In this document: one piece after another, positions 11,337-62,668 of the stretch
Layout: the number at the start of each line of letters is the position of its first letter
Numbering within the stretch: the first letter of the stretch is position 1
From: Vulcanimicrobiota bacterium
GTDB lineage: Bacteria; Vulcanimicrobiota; Xenobia; Xenobiales; Xenobiaceae
NCBI GenBank assembly: GCA_944322965.1
Contig: CALUQR010000009.1
Location: 8,845 to 72,844, forward strand
Direction of reading: 5' to 3'
DNA length: 64,000 bases
Notes under the pieces: generated by a model
Database searches by the model: none
Seen by the model: only the letters and a program-made list of their open reading frames with translations
Told to the model about the DNA's origin: nothing
Program-made: the position numbers and the translations under genes

Positions 11337-13050
11337 GATGCTCCTCGCTATGCTCTAAACAGGCCTGCACCGCCTCTAAGAGTTCCTTTTTGAAGAGGGG
11401 CTTAAAGAGATACTTGCGTCCGGTAGTCTTGAGCAGGTTGGAGACGTTGTAACCCGTCATAAAGATAAAGCGCTCTTGGAGTTTGGGATCTATTTCCCCC
11501 ACCTTCTGATAGAGCTCTAAACCGTTCATGCGGGGCATATTGTAGTCGCAGAGGATACAATCGAACTGGCGCTTATCTTCCTGCAGGCGCTGCAGACACT
11601 CTTCCCCGCTCCTAGCGAACTCCACGTAGTAGCCGTCGCTCTCCAGGTAGTCGCGCAACATGGAGAAGCTCATAATCTCATCTTCTACGATGAGGACCGC
11701 CGGTTGGGAGGAGATGATCACCCCGCCCGCCTCTTCGACGATCCTTTCCCCGCTATTAGCCTCCTCGTAAGCGGGACTGGGCAAGAACCAACTGACGGTC
11801 AAGCCGCCCTGTTCGTTATTGTGGGCGCTGATGCGACCTTGGCACTCTTGGACGATAGTTTTAGCTACCGCTAACCCCAAGCCGGGCAGCTGCGAGCGCC
11901 CCCAGTGGGAGACCCCGGGCTGGAAGATAGATTGGGGATGTTGGGGATCGAGATAGGCCGAGCCTACCCCCAAGGCGTTGTCGCTCACCTCGCACAAGAT
12001 GCCGTCGGCGCAGGGACCGGCCTCTAAAGTGATCTGACCGCGGTAGCGCTGGGAGCGCTTGGAGGAACTCAGAGTGCGCACCTTAGCGTTGACCGCCCGG
12101 CGCGCGTTATCTAAGGCGATAGTCCACAGTAAGCGCAGGCGCGGCAGAGAGCCCACCACTTCCCGCACCTGGCGGTCGACTAAGATTAAGAATTCGCCCG
12201 GCCATTCCGAACCGCAATAGTAACGCTCTTGGTTGACGATCTCTTCTAAGAGAGAGCGCAGATCGAAGAGCTGAGTGGAGCGCTCGGGGCCGCCCTTAGT
12301 TAACTGGGCGAAGTCGGCGCTGAGAGAGGAGATCTCGCAAGCTTGATGGGTCAATAACTCGGCCTGGTCGGAGAGCTCTCCCCCCTTAGAAGCGGCCAAG
12401 GTCTGGGCGTAGAGTTCTAACTGCTGGGTGCGCTCAGTGAGGAGCTTAGCTAAGACCTGGGCTCGCACCCCCAAGACGGCCCAAGTACCGATAGCCTCCC
12501 AATTGGCGGGCGAGGCCGCCGGCTGAGCGGCTGGAGCGGCGGCCGCCTGGGAGGGGCTAGCTGGGGAGGCGGCAGCGCTCTCCGTGGGGGAGCTGCTCTC
12601 CGGCTCCGCCTCCATATCGGCGGCCGTCAATTTAGCTACTAAGTCGTGGCTCTTAGATTTTAAGAGCCCGGCGCGCAGACTGCCCGACCAGAGGCAGAGC
12701 TCCATCTCGTCTTCTCGCCACAGAGCGTTACGCGTATTCTTCTCAAAATCGCGCTGCTCGCGTCCGCTCAAGTGGGATTCGGCTCCGATGACGACTAAGG
12801 CCCGCAGAGGCTCAATCTTCCCCAAAGCGCAACAGAAGTCGCGCCAGAGCACATCGGGCAAGGGGTACTTGACGATAACTATGAGAGGGGGGCGCTTGAG
12901 CGCCAGTTCCAGGGCGCTATACCCATCCTTAGCCTGGACCAACTCCCAATTCTTCTGTTGGCAGATATGGCCCCAGAGGCTGGATATGGCTTCTGATTCA
13001 CCAATAAATAGGACTAAAGGACGCATTCGGGAGGCAAAGACGGTGGACAT
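11329..13050 (-). CDS. Hybrid sensor histidine kinase/response regulator (degenerate N-terminal REC, HATPase_c, C-terminal REC)
   Basis: HATPase G-boxes (GLGLAVAKTIVQ). C-terminal receiver (LIVEDE...DCILCDYNMP...K). The six-frame ORF extends to 13320 but would overlap cheW by ~200 nt, so an internal Met (MSTVFASRMRP) at 13050 is the likelier start. Confidence 0.6.
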   Translation of the reverse strand: MSTVFASRMRPLVLFIGESEAISSLWGHICQQKNWELVQAKDGYSALELALKRPPLIVIVKYPLPDVLWRDFCCALGKIEPLRALVVIGAESHLSGREQRDFEKNTRNALWREDEMELCLWSGSLRAGLLKSKSHDLVAKLTAADMEAEPESSSPTESAAASPASPSQAAAAPAAQPAASPANWEAIGTWAVLGVRAQVLAKLLTERTQQLELYAQTLAASKGGELSDQAELLTHQACEISSLSADFAQLTKGGPERSTQLFDLRSLLEEIVNQERYYCGSEWPGEFLILVDRQVREVVGSLPRLRLLWTIALDNARRAVNAKVRTLSSSKRSQRYRGQITLEAGPCADGILCEVSDNALGVGSAYLDPQHPQSIFQPGVSHWGRSQLPGLGLAVAKTIVQECQGRISAHNNEQGGLTVSWFLPSPAYEEANSGERIVEEAGGVIISSQPAVLIVEDEIMSFSMLRDYLESDGYYVEFARSGEECLQRLQEDKRQFDCILCDYNMPRMNGLELYQKVGEIDPKLQERFIFMTGYNVSNLLKTTGRKYLFKPLFKKELLEAVQACLEHSEEHHG

Positions 13051-31553: not shown

Positions 31554-31847
31554 ATGGCATACCGGCCTTGTAGATTTCGTAGCTCAGTATTGGGCATCTT
31601 CCAGTGCGAGAAACATATGTTCCAGCACTCCAGCCCAGAGATCTACAGTGAGCTCTATGAGTTCTGTTACGATAACGTACCCGATCGTTTTTGCGGTTAC
31701 GTCGATTTTGGCTTCAGCCTAGAGGGTGAGACCCCGCGCATCTTTATCAACTGCACCCACCCCTACCAGTCCCGTCCCCTACGCAGCTTCCGCGATTGCC
31801 TAGAAGAGTGTGACTACCACGATAAGGAAGGCGAATCTCTCGGCTAA
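31554..31847 (+). CDS. Small Cys-rich protein (7 Cys, 97 aa), candidate precursor/partner for the downstream radical SAM-SPASM enzyme
   Basis: Good SD (CAGGAGAcgtatatATG). Lower GC than neighbours. Followed by a weak terminator-like hairpin + T6 and then the rSAM gene. Confidence 0.45.
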   Translation: MAYRPCRFRSSVLGIFQCEKHMFQHSSPEIYSELYEFCYDNVPDRFCGYVDFGFSLEGETPRIFINCTHPYQSRPLRSFRDCLEECDYHDKEGESLG

Positions 31848-32001
31848 AAGCTCTACCTAGAGTAAGAGCGCTCGCCTGGGCTCGACCTAGGCGCTTTTTT
31901 ATCGAAGAGGGAGACCGCTCTCTACTTTTTGACAGTTGGAGAGCGGTTGCAATTAAGTTTAGGGGTCGCAGATTAGGGTATTCCCGGCTGCTAGGATTTG
32001 G

Positions 32002-33318
32002 ATGAGTTTTCAAGCCGAGACAAGTAAGATTGCTCAAGCTCCCTGTGTTCTGCGGCGCGAGTCGTTTGGGTGCGTCATCTATCGTAGAGCGGGCAACGAC
32101 TATATACCCTGCGACAATGAGGCCTTGGCCATCCTCCTGGCTTGTAAAGACCGACCCGTAGAGGAAGCCTACCAGGAGCTGGCCCCCACCGTCAGTAAGG
32201 TCTCCTTCGACCAATTTGTGCAACTCTGCCAAGCGGTGGGCATTATCCACGAGGGGCGCTTCGACGGCTATATCCTCGATAATAGCTTCGTCAACGTCAA
32301 AAACCACCTCAGCGCCCCCACTAAGGTCCATCTCCAGCTCACCCGCTACTGTAATCTCAAGTGCCCCTACTGTTGGGCGGAAGCCGGTCAACCCCAAGAT
32401 CGCGAGTTGACCTTGCGCGAGCTAGACGAGCTCTTCGCCCAGTTCTGCCAGATGGGGGTTTTCAATTTAGAGATTGGCGGCGGCGAGCCCTTAGGGCGCA
32501 AAGATTTCCCAGACGTAGTAGCCCTAGCTAATAGTTATGGGATAGTCGTCAACGTGGCTACCAACGCCACCTTAGCTACCAAAGCTCTAGAGGAGAAGCT
32601 AGAGCCCTTAAAGATCGATACTTTTCGCATTAGTCTGGAGGCGGGCAGCGAAAAGATCTACGACAATGTGCGCGGAGTGCGCTCTTACCGCAAGGCGATG
32701 CGCGGTTTAGCCCACTTGCGCCGCGCCTGTCCCCAAGCCAAATTTATCTTCCACTGTACCCTTTACAAAGACAACTACTCGGAGATCCCCTCCATCGTCA
32801 AAAAAGCGGAGGAGCTCAAAGTCGACAAGCTCCTCTTCAGTACCGCCCTGCCCGTAGGGCGCGGGGCCCTCAATCCGCGCCTCTTATTGAGCGCTGAGGA
32901 GACGCGCAAGAGTTGCGAAATTATCCAGAGCATCTCCCAAAGCAACCCCCTCAAGATTGAAGTGGCCAATCTGACCCCTCCCAAGCGCCCTCTGCGCCGG
33001 GCTTTCGAAGGCTTTGGCTGCGAGTGCGGGCGCACTTCGATCCATATCTCCTCCAATGGTGGAGTCTATCCCAGCGGCTTAATGAGCTGCTTCCCCGCCT
33101 GGAAGGCCGGGGACGTACGCCAGAGCAAGTTTTTTGAGATCTGGAATAACTCCCCCGTACTCAAAAAATGGCGCTCCGTCGCCAGCAACCGACGCTGCAA
33201 GAACTGCTCTAAATTTAATTTCTGCCGCGGCGGCTGCCGAACCCGAGCCTTTATCCTGACCAAAGATCTCCAAGAGCGCGACCCCTTCTGCTTATTACCC
33301 CCCGAAGAGGGAGTGTAG
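32002..33318 (+). CDS. Radical SAM peptide-maturase-type enzyme with N-terminal PqqD/RRE-like domain and C-terminal SPASM domain
   Basis: N-terminal LRRESFGCVIYRRAGNDYIPCDNEALAIL (PqqD-like RRE pattern). CNLKCPYC rSAM CxxxCxxC motif. C-terminal Cys clusters (CECGRTS...C..C....CRGGCR) typical of SPASM. Confidence 0.75.
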   Translation: MSFQAETSKIAQAPCVLRRESFGCVIYRRAGNDYIPCDNEALAILLACKDRPVEEAYQELAPTVSKVSFDQFVQLCQAVGIIHEGRFDGYILDNSFVNVKNHLSAPTKVHLQLTRYCNLKCPYCWAEAGQPQDRELTLRELDELFAQFCQMGVFNLEIGGGEPLGRKDFPDVVALANSYGIVVNVATNATLATKALEEKLEPLKIDTFRISLEAGSEKIYDNVRGVRSYRKAMRGLAHLRRACPQAKFIFHCTLYKDNYSEIPSIVKKAEELKVDKLLFSTALPVGRGALNPRLLLSAEETRKSCEIIQSISQSNPLKIEVANLTPPKRPLRRAFEGFGCECGRTSIHISSNGGVYPSGLMSCFPAWKAGDVRQSKFFEIWNNSPVLKKWRSVASNRRCKNCSKFNFCRGGCRTRAFILTKDLQERDPFCLLPPEEGV

Positions 33319-33357
33319 AGCGGAATACCCCTCGAGCACCTAGAGAAAGTTGAGTCT

Positions 33358-35028
33358 TTGCCTTTGCTGGAACCGGGCTTCCTACCACCCTTAGGTCTAA
33401 CCTTAGCCGACCTCCAAGCCAGCCCCTATCTCTTGCAGATCATGTGGGTGGTGCTCATCCTCTCCGTCAGCGGCGCTATCCTCTGCTGGTGGAGATCGGA
33501 GGCCAATAAATGGTGGTATACGAGCGCCTTTCTCGTCTGCCTGAGCAGCTTATCTATCGTCTTTTTGACGGGGGGATTCACTAGCAATTACTATCTGCTG
33601 CTCTACTTGGCCCTCATCGTCACCTCATTTAAAGGGACGGTCTGGGTCTGCTTGGGATTCTGTATCCTCTCTAGCTGCCTCATGTACTTCGATTATGGCA
33701 GCGGACTGGGATTACTCAATAATATCGCCGCCCTCACTAAGCTCCTCTTACTGCCCTTCTTCGCCATCATCGCCTTCTTCGTCAATACCGCCCTCAATAA
33801 ACCGGCTACCGATTACGAGAAGTTACAGAGCGAGAGATTAGAGCAGGCCTACTCCATCACCCGCCACCAGATAGCGGAAAAGGAAGAGAGCGAGCTCCAA
33901 CTTTACGACCGCCAGCGCAAATTATATAGTCTCTTGCAGCTCTTCCAAAAGCTGGCCCAACAGCGCTCCGAGGACGTCATCAAAGATAATGTGGTAGATT
34001 ACGCCCGAGCGGAGGTTAAATCCCAGGTGGCCTTCGTAGCCTTCAATGAAGATGGGCGCTGGGATACCTCCCGCTTCCGAGGGATCAACGAGATTATGGC
34101 CCGCACTATCAGCCAGAAGATAGAGGCCGGAATCTTCGCCAAAGTTATTAAGAATGGCGAGTATATCAATTACACCCACAATACCCACCATTTCGAGCAT
34201 AATAATTACCGCCGCCCCTTCGACGCCCCCGGGATGTCCGGTTTAGCCCTGCGCAACCTCTTAGTAATGCCTATGCAAGACGCTACGGGCGCTAAGCCCT
34301 TCGGCGTCTTAGCGGTAGCCAATAAGCTGATGGGGGACGCTTACGATCAGCACGACGAGGACTTCCTCAACCTCCTGGCTACGGAAGCGGCGATTACCAT
34401 CTCCAATATGCGCCTCTACCGCAAATTGGAGCGCTCTTACTACGAGACTATCTTAGGTTTAGCCCAAGCTATCGAAGCTAAAGATCCCTATACCCACGGC
34501 CACGTCTCCCGGGTCGAACAGCTCTCCGTCTTCCTCTGCCAAGCTATGGGGGTCGATACGGCCACCACCGAGATTATCGCCAAAGCGGCCATCCTCCACG
34601 ATGTGGGTAAGATCTCTATCCCCGACCAGATCCTCTTAAAGCCCGGCCCCCTCACCCCGGAAGAGTTTGAGGTTATGAAGACCCACACCATTAACGCCCA
34701 ACCTATCTTGAGCAATATTACCTCCCTCCCGCCCCAAGTGACGGAGATCGTCGTCCACCACCACGAACGTTACGACGGTAGCGGCTATCCCCACCACCTG
34801 AAGGGGCGGGCCATCCCCCTGGGGGCCCAGATTATTAGCGTCGCCGACTCCTTCGACGCCATGATCACCGACCGCCCCTATAGGCGCGGCCTCTCCTTTG
34901 AAGAAGCCTTAAAGCGTCTGGAAGACTGCCGCGAGACCCAATTCTCGCCCTACATCTTAGATAAATTCTTGCAAAATATCGTCAAAGTCAAAGATTTAAG
35001 TGCCCTCCCCCACTACTTTGACTGTTAG
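33358..35028 (+). CDS. Membrane-anchored GAF-domain HD-GYP phosphodiesterase (c-di-GMP hydrolase-like)
   Basis: 4 N-terminal TM helices. GAF-like middle domain. HDVGK and HHHERYDGSGYP HD-GYP signature. Confidence 0.75.
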   Translation: MPLLEPGFLPPLGLTLADLQASPYLLQIMWVVLILSVSGAILCWWRSEANKWWYTSAFLVCLSSLSIVFLTGGFTSNYYLLLYLALIVTSFKGTVWVCLGFCILSSCLMYFDYGSGLGLLNNIAALTKLLLLPFFAIIAFFVNTALNKPATDYEKLQSERLEQAYSITRHQIAEKEESELQLYDRQRKLYSLLQLFQKLAQQRSEDVIKDNVVDYARAEVKSQVAFVAFNEDGRWDTSRFRGINEIMARTISQKIEAGIFAKVIKNGEYINYTHNTHHFEHNNYRRPFDAPGMSGLALRNLLVMPMQDATGAKPFGVLAVANKLMGDAYDQHDEDFLNLLATEAAITISNMRLYRKLERSYYETILGLAQAIEAKDPYTHGHVSRVEQLSVFLCQAMGVDTATTEIIAKAAILHDVGKISIPDQILLKPGPLTPEEFEVMKTHTINAQPILSNITSLPPQVTEIVVHHHERYDGSGYPHHLKGRAIPLGAQIISVADSFDAMITDRPYRRGLSFEEALKRLEDCRETQFSPYILDKFLQNIVKVKDLSALPHYFDC

Positions 35029-35049
35029 GGGAAGAAGGACCGCTCTCTT

Positions 35050-35790
35050 ATGGATAGCCATATCAATTTTTATAGACCCTTACCCCTCTTGCCCGTCGGC
35101 AACCTTATCTGTCCCCCGGGCCGCTCCCTGACCTGCAAATTGCCGACCCAGCCCTACTTTAAAGAGCTAGTCGCCTACGTCGAGCGTCATACGGCCAACC
35201 ACTTAGCTATCGCCTACCTCAAAGAGGGGGAGGGAGAAGAGGCCTCAGGCGAGCTCTACCCCGTAACTACGGTAGTGAGCTTAGACCGCGCCCAACCCTT
35301 AGATAAGAATGCCAACTCCCCCTACTGGGAGTGGCAAGTCTCTAACGGAGTGCGGGCCCGCCTCCTCTACGAGCTGCCTAACCCCTCCACCCCCTTCCGC
35401 TTAGCCCGGCTCATGCCCTACGACGAAGAGGAGCAGCGTTTGAGTCTCACCCAAACCTTCTTCCTCATCCTCCCCATTTGGGCCCAGTTCCGCCGCCTGA
35501 GCGCCGGGATCGACTGTTACGAAAGTACCGTGCCCTCTTGCGGCAATCGCTACTTTAGCGGCTACATGCAAAATGTCAGCAAATTCCTAGAGGACGTCTA
35601 CCGCCATCTCCCTCTGAGCTACGCCCAAAAGATCGACTACTTAGCCGCCCACACCGTAGCCGATAAGGGGCGCTTCCTCATCCGGGCCTTAGCCGAGATG
35701 GCCGACTCCAAATACTACTTTAAAACGGAGCGGGCCGACTACGCTCGCCTCTGCCGCATCAATAGTAACGCCTTCACTAAATCTAACTGA
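35050..35790 (+). CDS. Hypothetical protein, last gene of the rSAM/HD-GYP operon
   Basis: Gap of 21 nt from the upstream gene. No recognisable motifs. Confidence 0.4.
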   Translation: MDSHINFYRPLPLLPVGNLICPPGRSLTCKLPTQPYFKELVAYVERHTANHLAIAYLKEGEGEEASGELYPVTTVVSLDRAQPLDKNANSPYWEWQVSNGVRARLLYELPNPSTPFRLARLMPYDEEEQRLSLTQTFFLILPIWAQFRRLSAGIDCYESTVPSCGNRYFSGYMQNVSKFLEDVYRHLPLSYAQKIDYLAAHTVADKGRFLIRALAEMADSKYYFKTERADYARLCRINSNAFTKSN

Positions 35791-35855: not shown

Positions 35856-36881
35856 CTATAAGACGGTGATGCTGCGGTGGCGCAGGTTGGCCCCGCCCTC
35901 CCCTAAGATCCACTCCCGCAAGCGGCGCACCCCCTCCTGGGCGCTGACTTGGGGCTTAAATTCTAAGTCGCGCTCCGCCTTGGCCTTATTAAAATAATTA
36001 GAGAGGGCCAACTGGTCGGCTACAAAGCGGGTCATCTTGGGCTCTTCGGCGATCCGCAAGCTGCGGTAGATCCCCTCTAAGAGGGCCCCTAAAGCGCGCG
36101 TCAAGCGGTAGGAAACTTTGATCTTTATAGGCGGAGCCCCCACTTGGGCCAAGAGCTCCTTAATCCAGCCCCAGAGATTGACCGCCGCCCCGTCGCCAAT
36201 AAAGTAGGCCTGACCGGCGCAGCGCTCTAAATGGGTGTAAGCCGCGATATGGGCCTGGGCGGCATTATCGACGTAAGTCAGATCGACTAAGTTGCGCCCC
36301 TCCCCCACCTGGAAGAGTTGGCCCGCATAAGCCCGCTCTACGACGCGGGGCACTAAATGGGGATCGTCGGGACCGTAAATGAGATGGGGGCGCAAGGCCA
36401 CGGTCCGCACTTGGGGGGAGTTGGCCGCCAAGACCTCCTGCTCCGCCAAGGCCTTAGTCTGGGCGTAGGCGCAATCGTAGAAGCTAGGATAGGGGGTAGT
36501 CTCATCGACGTAGGCAAAGTCGGTCGCGGGCCGATAGATGACGCTGGGGGTACTCGTATAGATAAAAGCCCCCACGCCCAAACGCCGACAGGCCTCTAAG
36601 AGGTGGCGCACGGCCCAAATATTGATGGGCTCGTAATCGGCGTAGCTACCCCAGATCCCCGCCTTAGAGGCCGTATGGTAGATGACTTCCATCCCCTGGG
36701 CGGCGCTAAAGACGACGTCTTTTTGGGTGAGGTCCCCGTAGATACAGCGTACCCCCAGCTTTTCCAACTGGGGTTGAGGGCGGCGGGTGATACTAGTCAC
36801 CTCGTCGCCGCGCGCCAAGAGCTGAGCTACTAAGGCCTTGCCCAGAAAGCCCCCCCCGCCCGTCACCAGCACCTTGGCCAT
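35856..36881 (-). CDS. oleD: NAD(P)-dependent 3-beta-HSD/extended-SDR family reductase, OleD-like
   Basis: TGGGGFLG Rossmann motif. YxxxK. Fourth gene of an OleA-B-C-D ordered cluster. Confidence 0.6.
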   Translation of the reverse strand: MAKVLVTGGGGFLGKALVAQLLARGDEVTSITRRPQPQLEKLGVRCIYGDLTQKDVVFSAAQGMEVIYHTASKAGIWGSYADYEPINIWAVRHLLEACRRLGVGAFIYTSTPSVIYRPATDFAYVDETTPYPSFYDCAYAQTKALAEQEVLAANSPQVRTVALRPHLIYGPDDPHLVPRVVERAYAGQLFQVGEGRNLVDLTYVDNAAQAHIAAYTHLERCAGQAYFIGDGAAVNLWGWIKELLAQVGAPPIKIKVSYRLTRALGALLEGIYRSLRIAEEPKMTRFVADQLALSNYFNKAKAERDLEFKPQVSAQEGVRRLREWILGEGGANLRHRSITVL

Positions 36882-36891
36882 AACTTGCCCT

Positions 36892-38577
36892 CTACTTTCT
36901 CTGCAACTCTTCCGTAGCCCAACGAGCCAATTCTTGGCGGTCGATCTTCACGTTGTGGCGCGGATCGACGGGGAAGGACTCTAAGAAGAGGACCTCTTCG
37001 ATCTGCTTATAGAGCTCGTTTTCGTCGTAACGCCCCAAGATCTGGCGCTTCAACTGCTCTTGGCCCTTCTCATCTTCGGGCAGAGAACCCGGCTTAGTCT
37101 CCACAATCAAGACGGGTTGCTGTTGGCCCCGCTCGCCCACCCCCACCAGGGCGCTGCGGAAGACGCGGGGATGGTTATTAGCCATACCCTCCACCATGAC
37201 GGGGAAGATGGTCCCCTTGGGGGTCTCCACCCGGTGGTCTTTGCGCCCACAGAACCAGAGATCGCGATTATTGTCGAAGTAACCCGTATCCCCCATGCGA
37301 TGCCACTTTCCGCCCCGCTCGTCGGCTATCTTAGCTAAGCGGTTGGCCTCCTCTTCTCGGTAATACTCCTGGGTGACGACCGGACCGTAGGCTACGATCT
37401 CCCCTACCTCCCCATCGGGTAAGACTAAGTCTTCGCTAAATTTCTCGATCGGTTGGTCGGTAATCTTAATGATGCGCACTTCCATACCGGGCACGGGCTT
37501 ACCCACACAGGTACCCGCCCCCTCGATAGTCCTTTTAGCCGCATGATCTAAGACAAAAGAACCGCTCACTAAAGCTACGGGCAGACTCTCCGTAGCCCCA
37601 TAGGGGGTGTAGACTTCGCCCCCTTCGCCCAAGACGGAGCGCAGATTCTCCAAAAGGTCTAAGCCGACGGGGGCTCCGAAGGTAATAACTCGCTCAATGG
37701 GCTCTAAGGAGAGCTCCTCATCCTGGCAGTACTGGGCCACCTTGCGCCAGATGGCGGGAGAGCCTTGACCGTTAGTAATATCAAACTCTTCGATACTGCC
37801 CACCAAGAGCGCCGGATCGCAGGCCGCCGGTTTGGAGGGATCGAGGCGGGGCAAGACCACGGTCATCCCCAAAGCTAAATCGAAGAGGCCAAAGAGGGGA
37901 TAGCCGGGCAGATCGAGTTCGCCCGGTTTAAAGTGGAAGAGGTCGCGCAAGTACTTGATCTGCTCTTGGAAGATGCGATGCTGGTAGACTACCCCTTTCG
38001 CCTTACCCGTGCTGCCTGAAGTAAAGAGGATGGCGGCCATATCGGTGGGGCGCACCGCAGCCACCGGCACGCTGCCCTGGTGGGAGGCGGCCTCCTTAGA
38101 GATATTGATACAGCCCGGGAACCACTCGGTGGCCGTGAAGTTATGCAAAACGCTCTTAAAGGGGGCCCGATGGAAGAGGCGATAGAGATGGAGGGCCCGC
38201 ATCCCGATAAAGGCTTGGGGCTCGACATGCTCGATACAGCGCAACAAGTTCTCCCGCCCCATGCCGGGATCGAGCAGGACGGGTACCGCTCCCAACTTAA
38301 AGAGAGCGAAGACGCAAGCGATGAGATCGGGGCCATTCTTTAAGCCCAAGAGGACGCGTTGACCGGCCTCTACCCCTCCCTCTTGGAGGACCTGGGCGTA
38401 ACTATCGATCGTCTGGCCCAGCTGCTTATAAGTCCAAGAGGCGTAACCTTTCTTGAGGGGGAAGATGATGGCCGCCTGATCGGGGCGCTCCTTAATGACC
38501 GGTCCCAGGCAAGAAGCGATATTAGCCTGGGCGCTAGCTCCCTGCCCTTCCGTGCGGGTACTTTTCGCTTTACTCAT
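36892..38577 (-). CDS. oleC: AMP-dependent synthetase/ligase (acyl-AMP ligase), OleC-like
   Basis: AMP-binding motif ILFTSGSTGKAKGV. C-terminal adenylation-domain conservation. Confidence 0.65.
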   Translation of the reverse strand: MSKAKSTRTEGQGASAQANIASCLGPVIKERPDQAAIIFPLKKGYASWTYKQLGQTIDSYAQVLQEGGVEAGQRVLLGLKNGPDLIACVFALFKLGAVPVLLDPGMGRENLLRCIEHVEPQAFIGMRALHLYRLFHRAPFKSVLHNFTATEWFPGCINISKEAASHQGSVPVAAVRPTDMAAILFTSGSTGKAKGVVYQHRIFQEQIKYLRDLFHFKPGELDLPGYPLFGLFDLALGMTVVLPRLDPSKPAACDPALLVGSIEEFDITNGQGSPAIWRKVAQYCQDEELSLEPIERVITFGAPVGLDLLENLRSVLGEGGEVYTPYGATESLPVALVSGSFVLDHAAKRTIEGAGTCVGKPVPGMEVRIIKITDQPIEKFSEDLVLPDGEVGEIVAYGPVVTQEYYREEEANRLAKIADERGGKWHRMGDTGYFDNNRDLWFCGRKDHRVETPKGTIFPVMVEGMANNHPRVFRSALVGVGERGQQQPVLIVETKPGSLPEDEKGQEQLKRQILGRYDENELYKQIEEVLFLESFPVDPRHNVKIDRQELARWATEELQRK

Positions 38578-38644
38578 AATTATCTAGTCAACTTTTCTTA
38601 AGATCGGTAGGCGGGAGATTCTCCCCGCCCGGCGGCGCTAACTC

Positions 38645-39547
38645 TCAGCGCTCTAAGAGCTCCTCTAAAGCCTGGATAACGACTTGGGGGGCGTCTTCTA
38701 AGAGGTAATGGTTGGCGGTCTCTATGGAGCGCGCCTCGGCGTCGGGATAGATACTCTGCCAGCGGGCCAAAAAGTCCCGCCCAAAGACGTGATCTTGGGC
38801 GCCCCACACTAACATCTTGGGCGCTCTACTGAGCCGCAATAAGCCCTGCTCCACCTCGACTAAGGTCTTATAAGAGGGATGGGAGGGCGAGAGAGGGACG
38901 TCGCACACAAAACGCAAGACGGCCACCCGGTGGGCCCAGGAGTCGTAGGGTGCTAAGTAACCGGCCCGCACCGCCGGGGAGAGGGGGTTAGAGGCGCAGA
39001 CCCGCAAAGCCCCGCGCACAAAGGCGTTAAAGCCCCGCACCAAGAGGGCGCCCAAGAAGGGCACGCGCGCTAAACGGATCGTCCAGGGCATACGCTTAGA
39101 GCGGAAGGCGGCGGTATTCATAATCATCACCCTCTTAATGCGCTCCGGGTGGCGCACCGCGTAACCTAAGCCGATAGGGCCGCCCCAATCGTGGACGACT
39201 AAGGTAAAGGGCGGCAAGCCCAACTTATCTACCAAAGTCTCTAAATTGAAGATGTGATTTTCCAGAGTGTAGTCGTAATCTTGGGGCTTGTCGGAGAGGC
39301 CCATCCCCAAATGGTCGGGCACTACTACCCGATGCTTATCCTTAAAATGCTGGACCAAAGCCCGGTAAAAGAAGGACCAGGTGGGATTACCATGGACGCA
39401 GAGGATAGGCTCCCCTTGGGGTGCGCCGGGCGCCGGCCCCTCGTCTACGTAGTGCAAGCGCTGCCCCTCGGCGGGCAGATAGAGATAATTAGATTTAAAG
39501 GGGTAGAGACCCCGCCAACTCTCAGCACCAGTTTGCTTCATTACCAT
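38645..39547 (-). CDS. oleB: Alpha/beta hydrolase of haloalkane-dehalogenase-like subfamily, OleB-like
   Basis: HGNPTWSFFYR and VVHDWGGPIGLGYA motifs (HLD-type). Confidence 0.65.
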   Translation of the reverse strand: MVMKQTGAESWRGLYPFKSNYLYLPAEGQRLHYVDEGPAPGAPQGEPILCVHGNPTWSFFYRALVQHFKDKHRVVVPDHLGMGLSDKPQDYDYTLENHIFNLETLVDKLGLPPFTLVVHDWGGPIGLGYAVRHPERIKRVMIMNTAAFRSKRMPWTIRLARVPFLGALLVRGFNAFVRGALRVCASNPLSPAVRAGYLAPYDSWAHRVAVLRFVCDVPLSPSHPSYKTLVEVEQGLLRLSRAPKMLVWGAQDHVFGRDFLARWQSIYPDAEARSIETANHYLLEDAPQVVIQALEELLER

Positions 39548-40557
39548 GCGATCTCCATCATCGAACAGTTTATACCACTACCAATTCCCATGAGACCTAC
39601 GCGATCCCCAGAGGTTATCTCCCCCCGCTCGGAGGCGATAGCCAAGGTAATGGGCGCCGAAGCGGGCCCGATATTACCTAAGAAGGGGAAAGTTAGAAAA
39701 GCTTTCTCTAAACCGATACCCAGACGCTCAAAGAGTAAGCGCTGATGGCGATCCCCCACCTGATGGCAGATAAAGCGCTTAATGCGCTCCGGACTCCAAG
39801 CCAAGGTCTTCTCCGCCATCTTCCAGGTGCGACTGGCCAGATCGATACCCGCCTTGAGCAGGCCCGTCTGGTTGGTGGCGATATCGGAGATCGTCCCCAC
39901 ACAGTAGCGGCAAAAGCGCGTATCGGCTAAGGAGACGTGGCCCACTACCTTATGACCTTGGGGAGCCAACTGACGGTTAGTAATTAAAGCCGCCACCGCC
40001 CCCGAGCCCAAAGTTAAGCCCGCAAAGCACTTCGAGAAGGTAGCCAAGTCGATGCGCGGATCTTCTAATTGGCGCACCGTATTCTCAATAACTTGGCGCG
40101 AATTTTCTACATCTACGATCAGCGCGGCCTCGATCGCCCCCTGATCGATAAGCTGGCCCATCTGAGAGATGCCGTTGAGGAAGGCCAGACAGGCGTTAGA
40201 AATATCGTAACTGGAAGTCGTCTCCGGCAGACCTAAGGCGCTATGGACCATACAGGCCATAGAGGGCTCAATAAACTCTTTAGAGACGGAAGTGCAAACT
40301 ACGCAGCCGATGCGCTCTAAGGGGATCCCTGAATCTTCCACTACCTTGCGGGCGATACGGGCCGCAATATCCGCCAGAGACTCCCCCTCCCCCCAAACTC
40401 GCCGCTCATTGACTCCGGAGAGGGCGCAGACCCAAGAGCTGGGGATGCCCAGACGTTGGAAGGTGGGAGTCAAGCGCTCGCAGATGGAGTTAGTCGTCAC
40501 CACCTGGGAGGGCAGTTCGTAAGCTAGCGATTGTAAATATACGTTCTTATGTAACAT
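39541..40557 (-). CDS. oleA: FabH-like thiolase (KAS III superfamily), OleA-like head-to-head condensing enzyme
   Basis: KAS-III-type N- and C-terminal domains (GIGSGINCSMMEIAW C-terminus). First in the oleABCD gene order with 7-nt overlap to oleB. Confidence 0.6.
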   Translation of the reverse strand: MLHKNVYLQSLAYELPSQVVTTNSICERLTPTFQRLGIPSSWVCALSGVNERRVWGEGESLADIAARIARKVVEDSGIPLERIGCVVCTSVSKEFIEPSMACMVHSALGLPETTSSYDISNACLAFLNGISQMGQLIDQGAIEAALIVDVENSRQVIENTVRQLEDPRIDLATFSKCFAGLTLGSGAVAALITNRQLAPQGHKVVGHVSLADTRFCRYCVGTISDIATNQTGLLKAGIDLASRTWKMAEKTLAWSPERIKRFICHQVGDRHQRLLFERLGIGLEKAFLTFPFLGNIGPASAPITLAIASERGEITSGDRVGLMGIGSGINCSMMEIAW

Positions 40558-40594: not shown

Positions 40595-40987
40595 CTACTT
40601 TAAATGTTCTCTAATACGAGCCGCCACTTGGGCCAACTCCTCGGCGCTGGCCGGACGGGCGTTGGCAAAATCGAGATCGGCCTCGCTCTCAATGGGAACC
40701 AGATGTAAGTGGGCGTGCGGAATCTCCAGACCGGCGATCATTAAACCCACCTTGCGCGGTTGGAAAGTCTCTTGTAAGACCCGCCCCAAGCGCTGAGCGA
40801 CGGCGAAGAGATGGGCCGCTTCCTCAGCCTCTAAATCTAACCAGTGGTCTACCTCCCGCCGGGGAACGACTAAGAGATGGCCCGGACGCAAGGGAGCGAT
40901 CGATAAAAAGGCCCCGCACTTATCGTCCTCATAGACAAAATGGCCCGGCAACTGATGCTCTAAGATCTTGGTAAAAAGCGTAGCCAT
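40595..40987 (-). CDS. HIT-family (histidine triad) nucleotide hydrolase
   Basis: HAHLHLVP histidine-triad motif. Confidence 0.85.
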   Translation of the reverse strand: MATLFTKILEHQLPGHFVYEDDKCGAFLSIAPLRPGHLLVVPRREVDHWLDLEAEEAAHLFAVAQRLGRVLQETFQPRKVGLMIAGLEIPHAHLHLVPIESEADLDFANARPASAEELAQVAARIREHLK

Positions 40988-41681: not shown

Positions 41682-41768
41682 GCGGAAGTGGCGGAATCGG
41701 TAGACGCGCAGGACTCAGGATTCTGTGGGGTAAAACCTGTAAGAGTTCGAATCTCTTCTTCCGCACCA
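41682..41768 (+). tRNA. tRNA-Leu (anticodon CAG), long variable arm
   Basis: GTGGCGGAATCGGTAGACGCGC is near-identical to canonical bacterial tRNA-Leu D-arm. Anticodon loop CTCAGGA. CCA encoded. Confidence 0.85.
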
Positions 41769-41824: not shown

Positions 41825-42847
41825 GTGGGAAAAGATTTTTTTACTGCCCGTCGAAAGCAGCGCACCATGTTGTTGCAGAGAGAGTCTGACGAGTCCCGCA
41901 AACGCCCCAACAGATTGGGAGCCAAATTGAGGAACCTCTTCCGGCGCCGCCGCCCCAAAGGGGAGGCTAACGGCGAGCTCGCCGAGGGCGCTGGGGTAGC
42001 TCCCGCCAAAAAGAATGAGCTCCTCTTAAAAGCTTCGCAGATGTGGGGGAAGACGGTCGATAACCTCTGTTTTTCTATGGCCTTTGGCACCGCCGCGGTA
42101 GGCTCCATCCTCCTCTTTCGCATGCTCAATAAGACTAAGGTCTACGGCTTAAAGAACGTGCCCATCGAGCACGAAAATGTGCTCTATTGCATCAATCATA
42201 ACTCCCTGCTCGATAACTTTATCTTTGAAGCCGCCGCCTACGTCCCCAAGATCTTCTTCCAGCGCCAATATCTACCCATCAACTTGGCCGACCGGCGCAA
42301 TTTCTTCGGCGACCCCTCCTCGCGCAAATTGCGGGACCGGGTCATGCGCTTTTTGGGACGCCATTTCTTCCGCCACCTCAAAGCCTACCCCGTCGACCGC
42401 CGCACCGGCGATATGGGTCAGGTAGAGGAGTGGCGCAAGCTGCTTAAAGATAATATCGTCATCGTCTACCCCGAAGGCACGCGCTCCCGCACCGGCCAAG
42501 TGGGCCACGGCAAACCCGGAGTAGGGAAGTTGATCCACGAGGCCCGCCCCATCGTCATGCCCGTCTATATGGACGGCACGGCTAAAGTCCTGGGGGTAGG
42601 TATGAAATTCCCTACCATCTTCAAAACGATTAAGGTCTATATCGGCCAACCTATGGATCTGAGCGCCATCTTACAAGACGATCCCCCTAGCGATCGCCGC
42701 GGTCAGATGCTCTATTATATGCGCATCTCAGAAGCCGTCATGGATGAGATCCGCCACTTAAATCCCAACTATCGCCCCCCGACTAATGAAGAAGAGGGTA
42801 GAGATGTCCCGGTCGCCTCTCCCTCCCAGCCAGGAGACCCTAGCTGA
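41825..42847 (+). CDS. plsC: 1-acyl-sn-glycerol-3-phosphate acyltransferase (LPLAT family) with basic N-terminal extension
   Basis: NHNSLLD (HX4D) and VYPEGTRS motifs. The start may be one of several in-frame Met. Confidence 0.7.
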   Translation: MGKDFFTARRKQRTMLLQRESDESRKRPNRLGAKLRNLFRRRRPKGEANGELAEGAGVAPAKKNELLLKASQMWGKTVDNLCFSMAFGTAAVGSILLFRMLNKTKVYGLKNVPIEHENVLYCINHNSLLDNFIFEAAAYVPKIFFQRQYLPINLADRRNFFGDPSSRKLRDRVMRFLGRHFFRHLKAYPVDRRTGDMGQVEEWRKLLKDNIVIVYPEGTRSRTGQVGHGKPGVGKLIHEARPIVMPVYMDGTAKVLGVGMKFPTIFKTIKVYIGQPMDLSAILQDDPPSDRRGQMLYYMRISEAVMDEIRHLNPNYRPPTNEEEGRDVPVASPSQPGDPS

Positions 42848-58228: not shown

Positions 58229-61200
58229 CTACGCCTCCTCCCTCTCATAGTAGTAATAGTCCTCGCTACCTCCATTATTGCCTCCCCCCTCTCCTACCTT
58301 CTCAAATAGCTCATCTAAGCGCTCAGCCACGTCTCTAAACTTAATATCTACGGCGTAACACTCCTGATAAGCCTGAATGGCGTCCTCATAGCGCCCTTCC
58401 GCTTGCAAGATGGAGGCCAGATTGTAGCGCAGATCGAGCAACTCATCGTCGCTGAAGCCCGGCTGCTCCATAATCTTTTGCAACTGCTTGATAGCCAGAT
58501 CCCGATAGCCCTTCTCCTGGAAGGTCAGAGCCAGAGAGTTGACCGCCTCTAAGACCTTGGCCGGATCGCTGACCGCTTTGTAGAACTCGCCGATGGCCTC
58601 CTCTAAGAAGCCCAACTGACGGTAGAACTCACCCATCTTGATATGGTAAGAGACGTCGGTAGGCGAGAAGTTGAGCGCTTGGCTATACTCTTCCGTAATC
58701 TTGCCCAAGAGACCCTTGGCCAAGATCTGACGCGCTAAGCCCGCCGCTTCCTCTAACTTGCCCTCTAAGGCGTAGATAATGGAGACTCTAGAGAGGGATT
58801 GAGGACGGCTGGGCTCGCGCTCCAAGACCTCCTTATAGATAGGACACGACTCGTCGCGATAACCGCGCTCAAAGAGCAGATCGGCCACCCGCTCTAAGGT
58901 GGCGGGATCTTCCTGGCTATAATGGCGGATCTCCTCAAAGACCGGACGCGCCGCCTCTAAACTGCGGTAATCTAAGAGCAAGCTGGCCAAAGTGAAGGCC
59001 AACTCCAACCCTCTCTGGCGCATATCGTGGTTGATAGCCAGATCGATAGCCCGCCGATAGTAGGCGATCCCCTGATCGGCCTCCCCTAAGGAGATATCCG
59101 TCTCCGCAATGTAGACGATAATATCTAAGGCCTGCTGCCACTCTTCCAAGCGCTCCATAATGGAGGCTAAGCGGTCTTTGATGACTAAGGCCAAGTCTAA
59201 ACGATTCTCTTCCACAAAGCGCCGCTCGAGAGTATTGAGCAGCTCTACGCCCTCATGGACGTTCTTATGGCGGAAGAAACCGTCGATGAGCTTGACGAAG
59301 AGAGTCTCCGTATACTCCCGACGCCCGCGCTTTAAGTACTCCTCCAGGGCTTGTAGGTAATTATTTTGAGCCTCTTTCCACTCGTCGGCCTCTACTTGCT
59401 CGTCCCCTACGCGCTCTAAGTACTCTAAAGCCGCCTCCCACTGCTGATTGGCATTAAAAGCTTCGGAGAGGGTGCGGAAGACTTTGACCACATTCTTATG
59501 GTCGCTGCGCCCCTTGTAGGCGGGGATCAACTCCTCTAAGAGTTGCTGCCCTTCCTCTAAGTAGCCGGCCTTGAGGAACATCACCCCTAAGCGCTGGCTG
59601 AGCTCTAAGTTCAAAGGCTGCAGAGATTTAACTTCGCGCACGCAAGTCAGGGCCTCTTCCAGCTCGCCCCTATCGAGATGGATCCCCAACAAGACGCGGT
59701 AATTCTCCGTCGCCTCCTCTAGACGCATATTGCGGGCCAAGAGGTTGATCAACTGGCGCCGGTGGACGATATCCTTGCTATCTAAATCTAAGATCCGGTG
59801 CAGGACCTTTTGGGCCATCTCATTGAGGTTATGGCGCAAGTACTCCCGCGCTAAGAAGGAGAAATGCTCCAAGGCCTGAGCGCTCTGGCCGTGCTGAGCC
59901 CAAATCTCACCCAACCGATAGCGGGCGTTGAGATTTTCCGGGTCGATCTCCAAAATGCGCATGAAGACGTCGGCCGCCGAAGTGGCGTTGCCCTCTTTGC
60001 GGAAACGCCCCGCTAATACTAAGAGACCCTCTCTGGCCCGCTCTAATTTCCCTTGGGCCGCCACCTCCTGACAGAGGCGCATGCGAATCTCTACATCTAC
60101 GGGATGGTAAGCTAAGAGCTCGCCGTACAGGCGCTCCGCCTCTAAATGGTTGCCCGCTGCGGCCACCGACTCCGCCATATTGTAAATCTCCCGCCGCGCT
60201 TCAGCCATATTACCCGTACTCAAGAAGGAGTGGACGATACCGTCTAAATACTGCTGTTTCTCCGGCATTCCATCCGGCAATTTGAGAACTACTTCGCGCA
60301 AATTATCCATTAAACCGTTGATCTCATACTTTTGCAAAAGGATACGCAAAAAGGAGAGTTTCTCCGGATCATCCTCTTCTAAAAGGAAGATATCCTTCTC
60401 CGCCTCGGCAAAGCGATTGGCATTGAGATAGGCCTGAATGATGCGCCGCATGTAGCGCGAGCTGATCTCCGTCTTAGCGGGCAGACTGGCCACTTCCCGG
60501 GCCGCTTGGTCTAATTCTCCATCCTGGAGATAGGCCTCGATCAACTGGCCCATAAAGGAGTTGCGCGCCGGATCGCTCTCGTTGAGGCTCTTAATACAGC
60601 GCATCGCGTCGTTGAGGCGGTTAGCCTGCATGAGCCCCGAGATCTGGCGCATCGTAAAGTCGCGATAAGACTCGTCGCCCGGCGGCAATTTAGCCATCTC
60701 CGCCGCAGCGTCCTCAAAGCGGCCCGCCTCTTGGTACGAATTGATCAGGCGGCGCTGGAAGGAGAGGCGCAAGGAATCGTCGGCCGGCAAGCGGTCGATG
60801 AGAGAGACCGCGCTATCCATATTGGCGGCGTTGAGATAGAGCTCCATTAAGCGCGTAATTAACTTGTTGCGCTCCTTATCTGAGCGCGGAATGAGGGTGA
60901 CTATGGAGTCGGCCTGGGCCAGATCGCCCAGATCGAGGTAACGCTTAAAGAGCTCCTTGCGGAAGGAGACTAAGCGATCGTCGTCCTCGGGCAGAGCGTC
61001 GATATAGGTCCGCGCCTCGACGGTATGATTCTCCTCTAAGCAGCGCTCAATAATCTTATAAGTGAAAGCGCCCCGTTCAAAATCGCCCTCCGGTAAGGCC
61101 CTAATCTCGGCCATGGCTTGCTCGTAAAGGCCGTGCTCTAAGTAGTATTTGACTAACCGCTTGCGCACGTCGTAGCGGGTGGGCTCCATCTTTAAGATGG

Positions 61201-62668
61201 AGCGATAGGCGGCTACCGCCTGGTTCCAATCTTCTAAGGCGGCGTACTCTTCAGCCAAATAGTTTAAGGCGATTAAGTCCTCGGGATTATTATGGACCAG
61301 GCGCTGTAATTCCGCTACCGCCGCCTGGTGGTTGCCCTGGGAGCGCAGGGACAAGGCCACTTGATAGCGCAGGTCGGAGGTCTCCGGGAACATCTCTACC
61401 AACTGGTGTTGGAAATCTATAGCCTCGTCGTTACGTCCCTGCTCATGGTAGAGGCGCACCACCTCTTGGTATTCGGCTAAAGCTTCGCTGCCCATCTCCT
61501 TACGCATGTAGAGGTCGCCCAACATGCGCCTAGCCTCTATATTGGCGGGCTCAATCTCTAACATGCGGCGCAGAGTCTCGATCGCCTCATCGACCGCTCC
61601 CCGCTCTAAGTATAACTTAGCTAAGTAGAGCTGATGTTCAGCCGCCTCGTTGAACATCCCCTTTTTGAGGAGACTATTGATCAAACGCACCCGCAAGCCG
61701 ACGTTATTATTGTCGCGCGAGAGAGCCTCTTCGTAGATGGCGATCAGCTGGCTGCGCGCCCCCTCGTCGTCGGGATTGAGCTCGATAATCTTCTCCAAGT
61801 AGGCCATAACCTTCTCAGGGAAGCCCTCTTCGCCCGCGATCTGGGCCAAGGTGGCGTAAGTAGAGCAGGCCCGATCGAGGTAACCCTCGTCAGTATAGAT
61901 GTCGGCCAAGCGCACTAAGATGTCCTTATTGCGGGGCTCAAACTCCAAGATGCGCTCATAGGCGCGGATGGCATCCGTAAACTCGTTGCGCTGCACGAAG
62001 AGCTCGCCCGCATTGCGGAACCAGACGACCGTATTTTGAGGGGAACGGCCGATGCGTAAGAAGACCTCGCCTAAGAGCTCGTAGGCGCTAGCCGCCTCGC
62101 CGCTGGCCAGGCGCACCACCTCTTGGAACTCTGAGATCGCCTCCTTATTCTTATTATCTAACATCAAGGCCCGACCCATAGCCATGTGGGTCTCCCAGCG
62201 GCTGGGATCGAGATCTAAGCTGGGACGCAGCCACTTAATGGCCTCTACGTAGCGCCCCTCATTGAGATAGATAACCCCCGTCTTAGCGAAGATCTCCGGC
62301 TTGACCTGAGCTACTAGGTTTTGGATGTCGCTCAGCTGACTGCCGTGGATGCCGCTATTCTGCGCGAACTTCTCCAGGTTGAGGATATCCTTGTAACTGT
62401 CTATAGCTTTATCCGCCTCATCGCCAGCTACAAAGAGTTCCGCCAAAGCCATATCTTGACCGATAATGACTTGGAAATCGAGAGCCTGTTTGGCCGCCTC
62501 CAAGACGCGCTCGCGGATCGCGATATCATTGGGCTCTAGGCCTACCGCTTGACGATAGAGCTCGCGGGCGCCTTCCCAATCACCGCCGGCCAGCAGGTTA
62601 TCGGCTTCTTGAAGTAAGGACTCTATGCTATTGTGCTCTGTCATTTCTACTCCGATTTCCACTCCCAA
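58229..62668 (-). CDS. Giant (1479 aa) TPR-repeat scaffold protein
   Basis: Continuous arrays of 34-residue A/L/Y/E-rich TPR-like repeats with no catalytic motif. Confidence 0.6.
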   Translation of the reverse strand: MGVEIGVEMTEHNSIESLLQEADNLLAGGDWEGARELYRQAVGLEPNDIAIRERVLEAAKQALDFQVIIGQDMALAELFVAGDEADKAIDSYKDILNLEKFAQNSGIHGSQLSDIQNLVAQVKPEIFAKTGVIYLNEGRYVEAIKWLRPSLDLDPSRWETHMAMGRALMLDNKNKEAISEFQEVVRLASGEAASAYELLGEVFLRIGRSPQNTVVWFRNAGELFVQRNEFTDAIRAYERILEFEPRNKDILVRLADIYTDEGYLDRACSTYATLAQIAGEEGFPEKVMAYLEKIIELNPDDEGARSQLIAIYEEALSRDNNNVGLRVRLINSLLKKGMFNEAAEHQLYLAKLYLERGAVDEAIETLRRMLEIEPANIEARRMLGDLYMRKEMGSEALAEYQEVVRLYHEQGRNDEAIDFQHQLVEMFPETSDLRYQVALSLRSQGNHQAAVAELQRLVHNNPEDLIALNYLAEEYAALEDWNQAVAAYRSILKMEPTRYDVRKRLVKYYLEHGLYEQAMAEIRALPEGDFERGAFTYKIIERCLEENHTVEARTYIDALPEDDDRLVSFRKELFKRYLDLGDLAQADSIVTLIPRSDKERNKLITRLMELYLNAANMDSAVSLIDRLPADDSLRLSFQRRLINSYQEAGRFEDAAAEMAKLPPGDESYRDFTMRQISGLMQANRLNDAMRCIKSLNESDPARNSFMGQLIEAYLQDGELDQAAREVASLPAKTEISSRYMRRIIQAYLNANRFAEAEKDIFLLEEDDPEKLSFLRILLQKYEINGLMDNLREVVLKLPDGMPEKQQYLDGIVHSFLSTGNMAEARREIYNMAESVAAAGNHLEAERLYGELLAYHPVDVEIRMRLCQEVAAQGKLERAREGLLVLAGRFRKEGNATSAADVFMRILEIDPENLNARYRLGEIWAQHGQSAQALEHFSFLAREYLRHNLNEMAQKVLHRILDLDSKDIVHRRQLINLLARNMRLEEATENYRVLLGIHLDRGELEEALTCVREVKSLQPLNLELSQRLGVMFLKAGYLEEGQQLLEELIPAYKGRSDHKNVVKVFRTLSEAFNANQQWEAALEYLERVGDEQVEADEWKEAQNNYLQALEEYLKRGRREYTETLFVKLIDGFFRHKNVHEGVELLNTLERRFVEENRLDLALVIKDRLASIMERLEEWQQALDIIVYIAETDISLGEADQGIAYYRRAIDLAINHDMRQRGLELAFTLASLLLDYRSLEAARPVFEEIRHYSQEDPATLERVADLLFERGYRDESCPIYKEVLEREPSRPQSLSRVSIIYALEGKLEEAAGLARQILAKGLLGKITEEYSQALNFSPTDVSYHIKMGEFYRQLGFLEEAIGEFYKAVSDPAKVLEAVNSLALTFQEKGYRDLAIKQLQKIMEQPGFSDDELLDLRYNLASILQAEGRYEDAIQAYQECYAVDIKFRDVAERLDELFEKVGEGGGNNGGSEDYYYYEREEA

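Follow-up and report, generated by a model that had tools for sequence, protein, structure and literature searches.

A predicted oleABCD operon for head-to-head olefin biosynthesis in an uncultivated bacterium of the class Xenobia

Introduction

Several described systems bear on the gene cluster reported here, an oleABCD locus in a 64,000-nucleotide stretch of DNA from a Vulcanimicrobiota bacterium (contig CALUQR010000009.1, positions 8,845 to 72,844), which as a whole is called the window below. In Xanthomonas campestris, head-to-head olefin biosynthesis is encoded by four separate genes that lie in the order A-B-C-D on one strand, and OleB, OleC and OleD of this organism have reportedly been characterised by the Wackett and Wilmot groups. 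The four enzymes carry the EC numbers 2.3.3.20 (OleA), 4.1.1.114 (OleB), 6.1.3.1 (OleC) and 1.1.1.412 (OleD). In Shewanella oneidensis, the product of the ole genes is the C31 polyene hentriacontanonaene, for which polyunsaturated acyl chains from Pfa are used. Micrococcus luteus and other Micrococcales form head-to-head alkenes by the same chemistry from oleA, a fused oleBC and oleD (PMC7158056). The oleACD clusters of beta-lactone biosynthesis, such as those of lipstatin (LstABCD) and nocardiolactone, have OleA-, OleC- and OleD-type enzymes and the beta-lactone intermediate in common with the olefin pathway (PMC7064751), but they lack oleB and often contain tailoring enzymes or a heterodimeric OleA pair.

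Surveys of ole genes have reported them from Proteobacteria, Actinobacteria, Chloroflexi, Planctomycetes and Verrucomicrobia (PMC7158056) and have covered 17 classes (PMC7064751), with the phylum of the window absent from both. This phylum, Vulcanimicrobiota (formerly Eremiobacterota/WPS-2), was uncultivated until 2022 (PMC9758169). A search of the Xenobia and Eremiobacterota literature returned no ole or olefin content in titles or abstracts, and when ole terms were combined with the stem Eremiobacter or with WPS-2, neither name occurred in the 12 top-ranked of 1,978 matches; the class Xenobia and its phylum are thus not previously linked to ole genes in the literature searched. The window contains a bona fide oleABCD cluster, ordinary save for its under-studied host phylum and a possibly lineage-specific gene of the HIT (histidine triad) family that precedes oleA. 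Very probably, as judged from its sequence, the region serves the head-to-head synthesis of long-chain olefins as a functional oleABCD operon, with transcription probably starting upstream of the HIT gene.

Organization of the ole locus

An earlier note on this DNA had claimed four consecutive minus-strand genes in the order A-B-C-D, with short gaps and an overlap at 39541-39547, had named their families by eye, and had called an oleABCD olefin pathway from them. The list of open reading frames (ORFs) returns exactly these four genes at the same coordinates (Table 1), and the 7-base overlap of oleA and oleB was confirmed from the sequence. All four family names are upheld by Pfam (thiolase/ACP_syn_III, Abhydrolase_1, AMP-binding and 3Beta_HSD), and the pathway call is supported by gene presence, order, family placement and catalytic residues. 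At the overlap (ATGGTAATG), the oleA end GCA TGG TAA runs across the oleB start ATG GTA ATG, and either ATG as the start of oleB would overlap the oleA stop codon, which by its layout is a translational-coupling arrangement. The gap between oleC and oleD is 10 nucleotides (nt). Each ORF spans its best profile essentially end to end (OleA 1-338 of 338, OleB 14-290 of 298, OleC 3-552 of 555, OleD 2-327 of 329), and therefore none is truncated or frameshifted.

A short inverted repeat rich in G+C (GGCGGGGAGAATCTCCCGCC) lies in the spacer between oleB and oleC; no T-tract follows it, and a terminator scan made no call there. Since the spacer measures only 5-38 nt in relatives, this element is not a conserved one. 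The window has a single OleA-like gene and no further copy of any ole gene, and an Rfam scan found tRNAs only, with no RNA element in or beside the ole cluster.

Table 1. Coordinates of the ole genes, the codons of the OleA catalytic residues and the neighbouring features in the window (aa, amino acids).
Feature	Position	Strand	Length and remarks
oleA, acyl-CoA:acyl-CoA alkyltransferase, head-to-head Claisen-condensing thiolase	39541..40557	-	338 aa
oleB, haloalkane-dehalogenase subfamily III-like alpha/beta hydrolase, predicted beta-lactone decarboxylase	38645..39547	-	300 aa
oleC, ANL-superfamily adenylating enzyme, predicted olefin beta-lactone synthetase	36892..38577	-	561 aa
oleD, extended short-chain dehydrogenase (3-beta-HSD family), predicted NADPH-dependent 2-alkyl-3-oxoalkanoate reductase	35856..36881	-	341 aa
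oleB-oleC intergenic spacer	38578..38644	-	67 nt; sequence read
OleA E97-P98 codons	40264..40269	-	
OleA C123 codon	40189..40191	-	
OleA H265 codon	39763..39765	-	
OleA N295 codon	39673..39675	-	
HIT-family (histidine triad) gene	40595..40987	-	130 aa; Pfam HIT 75.7 bits
Run of four co-directional ORFs converging on oleD	31554..35790	+	
tRNA-Leu(CAG)	41682..41768	+	
PlsC-type acyltransferase	41825..42847	+	340 aa from GTG start

Assignment of OleA

The thiolase is assigned to OleA rather than to FabH or the chalcone synthases, since alignment scores, profile scores, a Glu-Pro dipeptide and the OleA sequence pattern all agree. In a search of PDB sequences, its residues 1-338 align without gaps to crystallised X. 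campestris OleA (250 bits, E 3e-73; structures 3ROW, 3S21, 4KTI, 5VXD and others), whereas for FabH structures the best scores are 65-73 bits. On the NCBIfam model NF006720 it scores 403 bits (cut-off 285), and neither of the FabH models is passed (TIGR00747, 107 bits against a cut-off of 292; NF006829, 120 bits against 249). This model was calibrated with X. campestris OleA itself, which reaches 478 bits with it as against 114 bits with TIGR00747; NF006720 is therefore in effect a model of the OleA family, and its name is misleading.

That name, '3-oxoacyl-ACP synthase III', has led to OleA homologues being labelled as FabH throughout public databases, and OleB homologues are labelled 'haloalkane dehalogenase'. 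An annotation problem follows, in which ole clusters are systematically mislabelled because the best model for a characterised OleA carries a FabH-type name.

The catalytic residues E97-P98, C123, H265 and N295 correspond by alignment to E117-P118, C143, H285 and N315 of X. campestris OleA, whose published numbering takes in a 20-residue tag. At the Glu-Pro dipeptide, FIEPSMA of the window protein aligns with YLEPSTA of the X. campestris enzyme, and the dipeptide is invariant in a 29-homologue alignment. Glu117-Pro provides a general base that is supplied across the dimer; it is unique to OleA among thiolases and present in all OleA proteins but two (Smith et al. 2020, PMC7064751). The search pattern EPxx[AS]x(14,18)DxxNACL, proposed for OleA by Surger et al. 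2020 (PMC7158056), occurs at residues 97-124. Gene neighbourhood has also been used to recognise OleA, by the presence of at least two of oleB, oleC and oleD (PMC7064751, PMC7158056); in the window oleA is followed directly by all three, on its own strand.

Assignment of OleC and OleD

The earlier note had taken the ligase for OleC and the reductase for OleD, and both calls are supported. The ligase groups with the olefin beta-lactone synthetases and not with the fatty-acyl-CoA ligases, as it matches the models OlefBLtnSynXan (504 bits, E 3e-151, profile positions 2-543 of 544) and OlefBLtnSynShew (435 bits, E 2e-130) at full length, against 186 bits on the best generic long-chain fatty-acid-CoA ligase model. 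It also passes the broader model NF006754 (604 bits, cut-off 478). The motifs of the ANL superfamily are intact (TSGSTGKAKG at 186-195, YGATE at 326-330, GDTG at 429-432), and K544, placed by motif context and not by alignment, is a candidate for the conserved C-terminal lysine.

The reductase is best matched by the OleD models, with 371 bits on oxyalk_red_OleD (E 6e-111, profile positions 2-327 of 329) and 339 bits on oxyalk_red_Shew (E 3e-101), compared with 133 bits for the next family, HpnA. In Pfam it is matched by 3Beta_HSD (170 bits). Its motifs of the extended short-chain dehydrogenases are intact, with the nucleotide-binding Gly motif GGGGFLG (8-14) and, for the catalytic Ser and Tyr-x3-Lys, TSTPS (109-113) and YAQTK (139-143). 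Both OleC and OleD score at least 2.7-fold any family outside the Ole-type models.

Placement of OleB

In PDB sequence searches no solved OleB, OleC or OleD was found, the best matches being DhaA-type dehalogenases, 4-coumarate-CoA ligase and NSDHL, respectively. For OleB the best match is to DhaA variants (158 bits), with DhmeA (8CKP) matched at E 5e-42. The protein falls below the cut-offs of all three NCBIfam models for haloalkane dehalogenases (HLDs), with 174 bits against a cut-off of 241. Its catalytic pentad consists of N54, D120, W121, D252 and H280; in the subfamily III scheme the Asn and Trp take the halide/oxyanion positions, the first Asp is the nucleophile, the second, after strand beta-7, is the catalytic acid, and the His is the base. 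The pentad of DhmeA, a member of HLD subfamily III, is N63, D129, W130, D258 and H286 (PMC10503415), and the spacing in OleB is the same (Asn to Asp 66, Asp to His 28). X. campestris OleB also belongs to this subfamily, in which the pentad is conserved (PMC10503415).

At the position of the catalytic Glu of HLD subfamily II (E130 in DhaA), OleB carries Asn144. This residue and the pentad are invariant across an 18-homologue alignment, which comprises four decarboxylases named by JGI, proteins from Planctomycetes, Lentisphaeria, Anaerolineales, Rokubacteria and Eremiobacterota, and the oleA-adjacent copies from five of the loci described below (L001-L003, L009, L010); 9 of the 18 lie beside ole genes. 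Some homologues at 52-54% have been named 'cis-3-alkyl-4-acyloxetan-2-one decarboxylase' by JGI. OleB resembles the members of HLD subfamily III (DhmeA 8CKP, DrbA, DmbC) in its fold and in its pentad of Asn, Asp-Trp, Asp and His. They differ from it in that OleB sits within an ole operon, where a beta-lactone substrate, with no more than residual dehalogenase activity, would be predicted from X. campestris OleB (PMC10503415).

Gene order across relatives and comparison with described systems

Gene order was compared across loci collected by searching genomes with the OleB sequence as query and metagenomes with an OleA alignment, which gave 91 loci beyond the window's own contig (L008). Order statistics rest on the 44 loci with at least 4.7 kb of sequence downstream of oleA, a few of them near-duplicates. 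Of these, 27 have all four genes on one strand in the order A-B-C-D, 9 have oleA alone, 4 have A-D, 2 have A-B and 2 have A-C-D. The arrangement of the window is the majority, canonical one, and oleB, overlapping the oleA stop and followed after 67 nt by oleC, holds the same position as in the 27 loci. With the OleB query, three distant loci were matched among genome contigs (Bacteriovoracaceae, a deltaproteobacterium and Lentimonas). The A-B-C-D loci include Bacteriovoracaceae and deltaproteobacterial genomes, and the order is conserved across phyla. Because it recurs in 27 of 44 loci, it is not a chance co-location.

The window resembles the X. campestris system in that its four genes are unfused, co-directional and ordered A-B-C-D, and further in an OleA of 338 aa that aligns without gaps and with identical Glu-Pro, Cys, His and Asn, in full-length matches of OleC and OleD to NCBIfam models derived from Xanthomonas, and in an OleB of the HLD subfamily III type. 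It differs in that the proteins are distant (OleA 250 bits; OleC and OleD under the equivalog cut-offs) and come from another phylum, and in the HIT gene before oleA, of which no mention was met in the ole literature searched. The same four enzyme families are shared with Shewanella oneidensis, to whose model types OleC and OleD match with 435 and 339 bits. Unlike the fused oleBC of the Micrococcales, oleB and oleC of the window are unfused and separated by their 67-nt spacer. Unlike the oleACD clusters, the window has a single oleA and an intact oleB.

Predicted pathway and product

Enzyme activity, product identity, chain length and co-transcription are predicted by analogy, and the mechanism is carried over from the characterised Xanthomonas and Shewanella enzymes (PMC7064751, PMC7158056). 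One fatty acyl-CoA would acylate Cys123 of OleA, and Glu97 of the partner subunit would deprotonate the alpha-carbon of a second acyl-CoA, so that a non-decarboxylative Claisen condensation would give a 2-alkyl-3-oxoalkanoic acid. With NADPH, OleD would be expected to reduce this compound to the 2-alkyl-3-hydroxyalkanoic acid. OleC would then adenylate the carboxylate with ATP and close the ring to a cis-3-alkyl-4-alkyloxetan-2-one, the beta-lactone. Finally, Asp120 of OleB, acting with His280 and Asp252, would attack the lactone, with release of CO2 and formation of an internal cis-alkene of 2n-1 carbons, which would be a neutral membrane hydrocarbon.

A difference from Shewanella oneidensis lies in the surroundings of the locus, as no pfa-type polyunsaturated fatty-acid synthase is present among the 10 scanned genes flanking the ole cluster, a scan that did not extend to the large ORFs towards the ends of the window (e.g. 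1479 aa, 58229-62668). A polyene product is therefore not suggested. Our guess is that mono-unsaturated or branched alkenes would be made from the ordinary acyl pool of the host, and not a polyene of the Shewanella type.

If this reading is right, the class Xenobia (Vulcanimicrobiota/Eremiobacterota) joins the lineages that carry the head-to-head olefin pathway, and neutral long-chain alkenes are predicted in the membranes of these bacteria, gut and skin samples being the source of some of them. Such alkenes might serve as a lipid biomarker, and the divergent OleA, OleB, OleC and OleD sequences could be screened for new substrate ranges. The advance is incremental, and understanding of the pathway itself is unchanged.

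Evidence against and alternative explanations

The reading of the region as a functional olefin operon is carried by gene presence, integrity, order and family placement, and by the conservation of every catalytic residue examined. Several observations weigh against it. Both OleC (504 and 435 bits) and OleD (371 and 339 bits) lie below the cut-offs of the NCBIfam equivalogs, which are 900 and 850 for NF045786 and NF045785, and 580 for NF042422 and NF042423. OleB was placed by its pentad, the names of its relatives and its gene context only. A sigma-70 scan gave 3 promoter-like sites against 2.3 expected, none of them upstream of the operon, and a weak terminator-like hairpin between the HIT gene and oleA could separate the transcripts. 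The host is uncultivated, and olefin production is a prediction from its genes. As regards the cut-offs, OleC and OleD of a deltaproteobacterium, encoded within an A-B-C-D cluster (L002), likewise fall below them (619/617 and 396/398 bits). The cut-offs are therefore taken to be tuned to Xanthomonadaceae and Shewanella, and for OleC and OleD they appear to be clade-specific.

It is conceivable, though improbable, that the cluster ends at the beta-lactone, as in lipstatin- or nocardiolactone-type biosynthesis, and that the hydrolase does another job, for example in resistance or hydrolysis. OleA, OleC and OleD are indeed common to the olefin and beta-lactone pathways (PMC7064751), and oleB is missing from some of the loci compared here (A-C-D in 2 of 44, A-D in 4 of 44). 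However, it is by lacking oleB that beta-lactone clusters are defined in the literature (PMC7064751), whereas the window has an oleB with an intact, invariant pentad and a start that overlaps the stop of oleA. Nor do tailoring genes (P450, glycosyltransferase or nonribosomal peptide synthetase) lie near the ole cluster.

A decaying or silent remnant, from which only OleA-derived ketones or nothing at all would be made, has a still smaller chance of being the right explanation. Such a state would fit the failure to find a promoter consensus, and the occurrence in related genomes of 'orphan' OleA genes without oleBCD indicates that the set can be broken up. Against this, the four ORFs are full length with respect to their profiles, with every catalytic residue intact, and the block formed by the HIT gene and oleABCD is kept in several lineages at OleA identities of 58-71%, which implies purifying selection.

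That ordinary enzymes (FabH, a true haloalkane dehalogenase, a fatty-acyl-CoA ligase and a sterol- or sugar-type short-chain dehydrogenase) are merely adjacent can hardly be upheld: the public names of homologues ('3-oxoacyl-ACP synthase III', 'haloalkane dehalogenase', 'alpha/beta fold hydrolase') and of NF006754 ('fatty acid CoA ligase family protein') speak for it, but these generic names are an annotation artefact, as characterised X. campestris OleA shares the same name and model, and the FabH model gives only 107 bits against a cut-off of 292, the HLD equivalogs are under cut-off with the invariant Asn144 at the position of the HLD-II catalytic Glu, the fatty-acyl-CoA ligase models give at most 186 bits against 504 for the OleC model, and the four-gene order is conserved across phyla.

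The HIT gene upstream of oleA

In the window, a gap of 37 nt separates the HIT gene from oleA, which it precedes on the same strand. Its product carries the motif HAHLHLV (91-97), and its best PDB matches are the uncharacterised HIT proteins 7MQW and 3P0T (E 4e-34). Among the 76 loci with enough upstream sequence, a HIT gene directly precedes oleA in 10, with gaps of 60-108 nt. These 10 loci (L004-L007, L009, L013-L017) are exactly those in which OleA is at least 58% identical to that of the window, and none of the remaining loci has a HIT gene upstream of oleA, even at a tblastn E-value of 0.01. The genes upstream of the HIT-oleABCD block vary by lineage (RNase HI, PfkB or an unknown gene), as do those downstream (a 246-aa unknown, Band_7/flotillin or UPF0047). 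Since the outer flanks change while the five-gene block stays, HIT seems to travel with the ole operon, of which it is probably a lineage-specific first gene.

It is rather unlikely, although the linkage is in keeping with it, that the ole operon of Xenobia has five genes with the HIT protein as a working partner of the pathway. If true, this would amount to a lineage-specific variant of the Ole machinery. HIT/Hint enzymes cleave phosphoanhydrides and phosphoramidates of the acyl- and aminoacyl-AMP type. On this ground it might be proposed, as pure speculation, that the HIT protein hydrolyses stalled or off-pathway acyl-adenylates from OleC, or that it regulates flux. In the literature searched, no paper combined 'histidine triad' with any ole term.

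Host, synteny and inheritance

OleA and OleB proteins identical to those of the window occur in public metagenome assemblies, on a Logan contig of 13.8 kb (L008) and on an ENA contig. The nearest named relatives are metagenome-assembled genomes (MAGs) of Candidatus Bruticola (class Xenobia). Synteny with a contig of this genus (L004) extends over about 17 kb and takes in the genes for Lon, a rhomboid protein, an AI-2E transporter, the acyltransferase, RNase HI and HIT, then oleABCD, the 246-aa unknown, a GAF-HD protein and a radical-SAM/SPASM protein. Identities to L004 are 71% for OleA, 58% for OleB, 65% for OleC and 59% for OleD; among the neighbours they are 62% for HIT, 58% for RNase HI, 65% for the GAF-HD protein and 80% for the acyltransferase, which is the best conserved of them. 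The window also encodes ribosomal protein L1, NusG, Lon and five tRNAs, and its G+C content is even. Together, the synteny with Ca. Bruticola, the housekeeping neighbours and the even composition point to vertical inheritance of the cluster in the core chromosome of a Xenobia bacterium.

Placement of the cluster on a horizontally transferred island was considered and rejected, given the unremarkable G+C content, the housekeeping flanks and the 17-kb synteny with a related MAG.

Beyond oleD, the plus-strand run of ORFs encodes a Cys-rich protein of 97 aa, a radical-SAM/SPASM enzyme of 438 aa, a protein of 556 aa with GAF plus HD-GYP-like domains, and a protein of 246 aa without family match. 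The best NCBIfam matches of the radical-SAM/SPASM enzyme are peptide and mycofactocin maturases, all under cut-off. Parts of the run are kept beside the ole block in four loci (L004, L009, L013 and L014), and it could be a peptide-maturation or signalling module. On the other side of the cluster, the tRNA-Leu(CAG) gene lies between RNase HI and the PlsC-type acyltransferase. The GTG start of the latter is probably too early, as the protein is 326 aa long in the gene call for the identical Logan contig.

Non-canonical ole loci

Other arrangements were seen among the metagenomic loci. In eight of them (L034, L038, L042, L043, L049, L051, L052, L062) oleD directly follows oleA, and two are of the A-B type (L003, L054). 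Three A-C-D loci (L044, L056, L057) have no oleB within 6 kb and are candidate beta-lactone-producing clusters.

A group of 'orphan' OleA genes (L011, L012, L018-L020, L026, L066) encodes proteins 49-54% identical to OleA of the window, and in the 6-7 kb downstream of them tblastn (E 1e-10) revealed no oleB, oleC or oleD. OleA of L011 retains all catalytic residues in the 29-sequence alignment. In L011 and L012, the loci of this group with gene calls, an ATP-grasp gene precedes oleA and a weak TerB-like gene follows it; radical-SAM/SPASM and GAF-HD genes, both of types that also flank the ole cluster of the window, lie 4-5 kb downstream. A GAF-HD match is also found downstream of the orphan oleA in L018-L020. 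The orphan group may represent a different OleA-initiated pathway, or ole genes split across the genome.

In one further locus (L010), where OleA is 56% identical to that of the window and no HIT gene is present, an acyl-CoA dehydrogenase gene (10499-11659, plus strand) overlaps the end of oleD, which suggests another lineage-specific addition to an ole operon.

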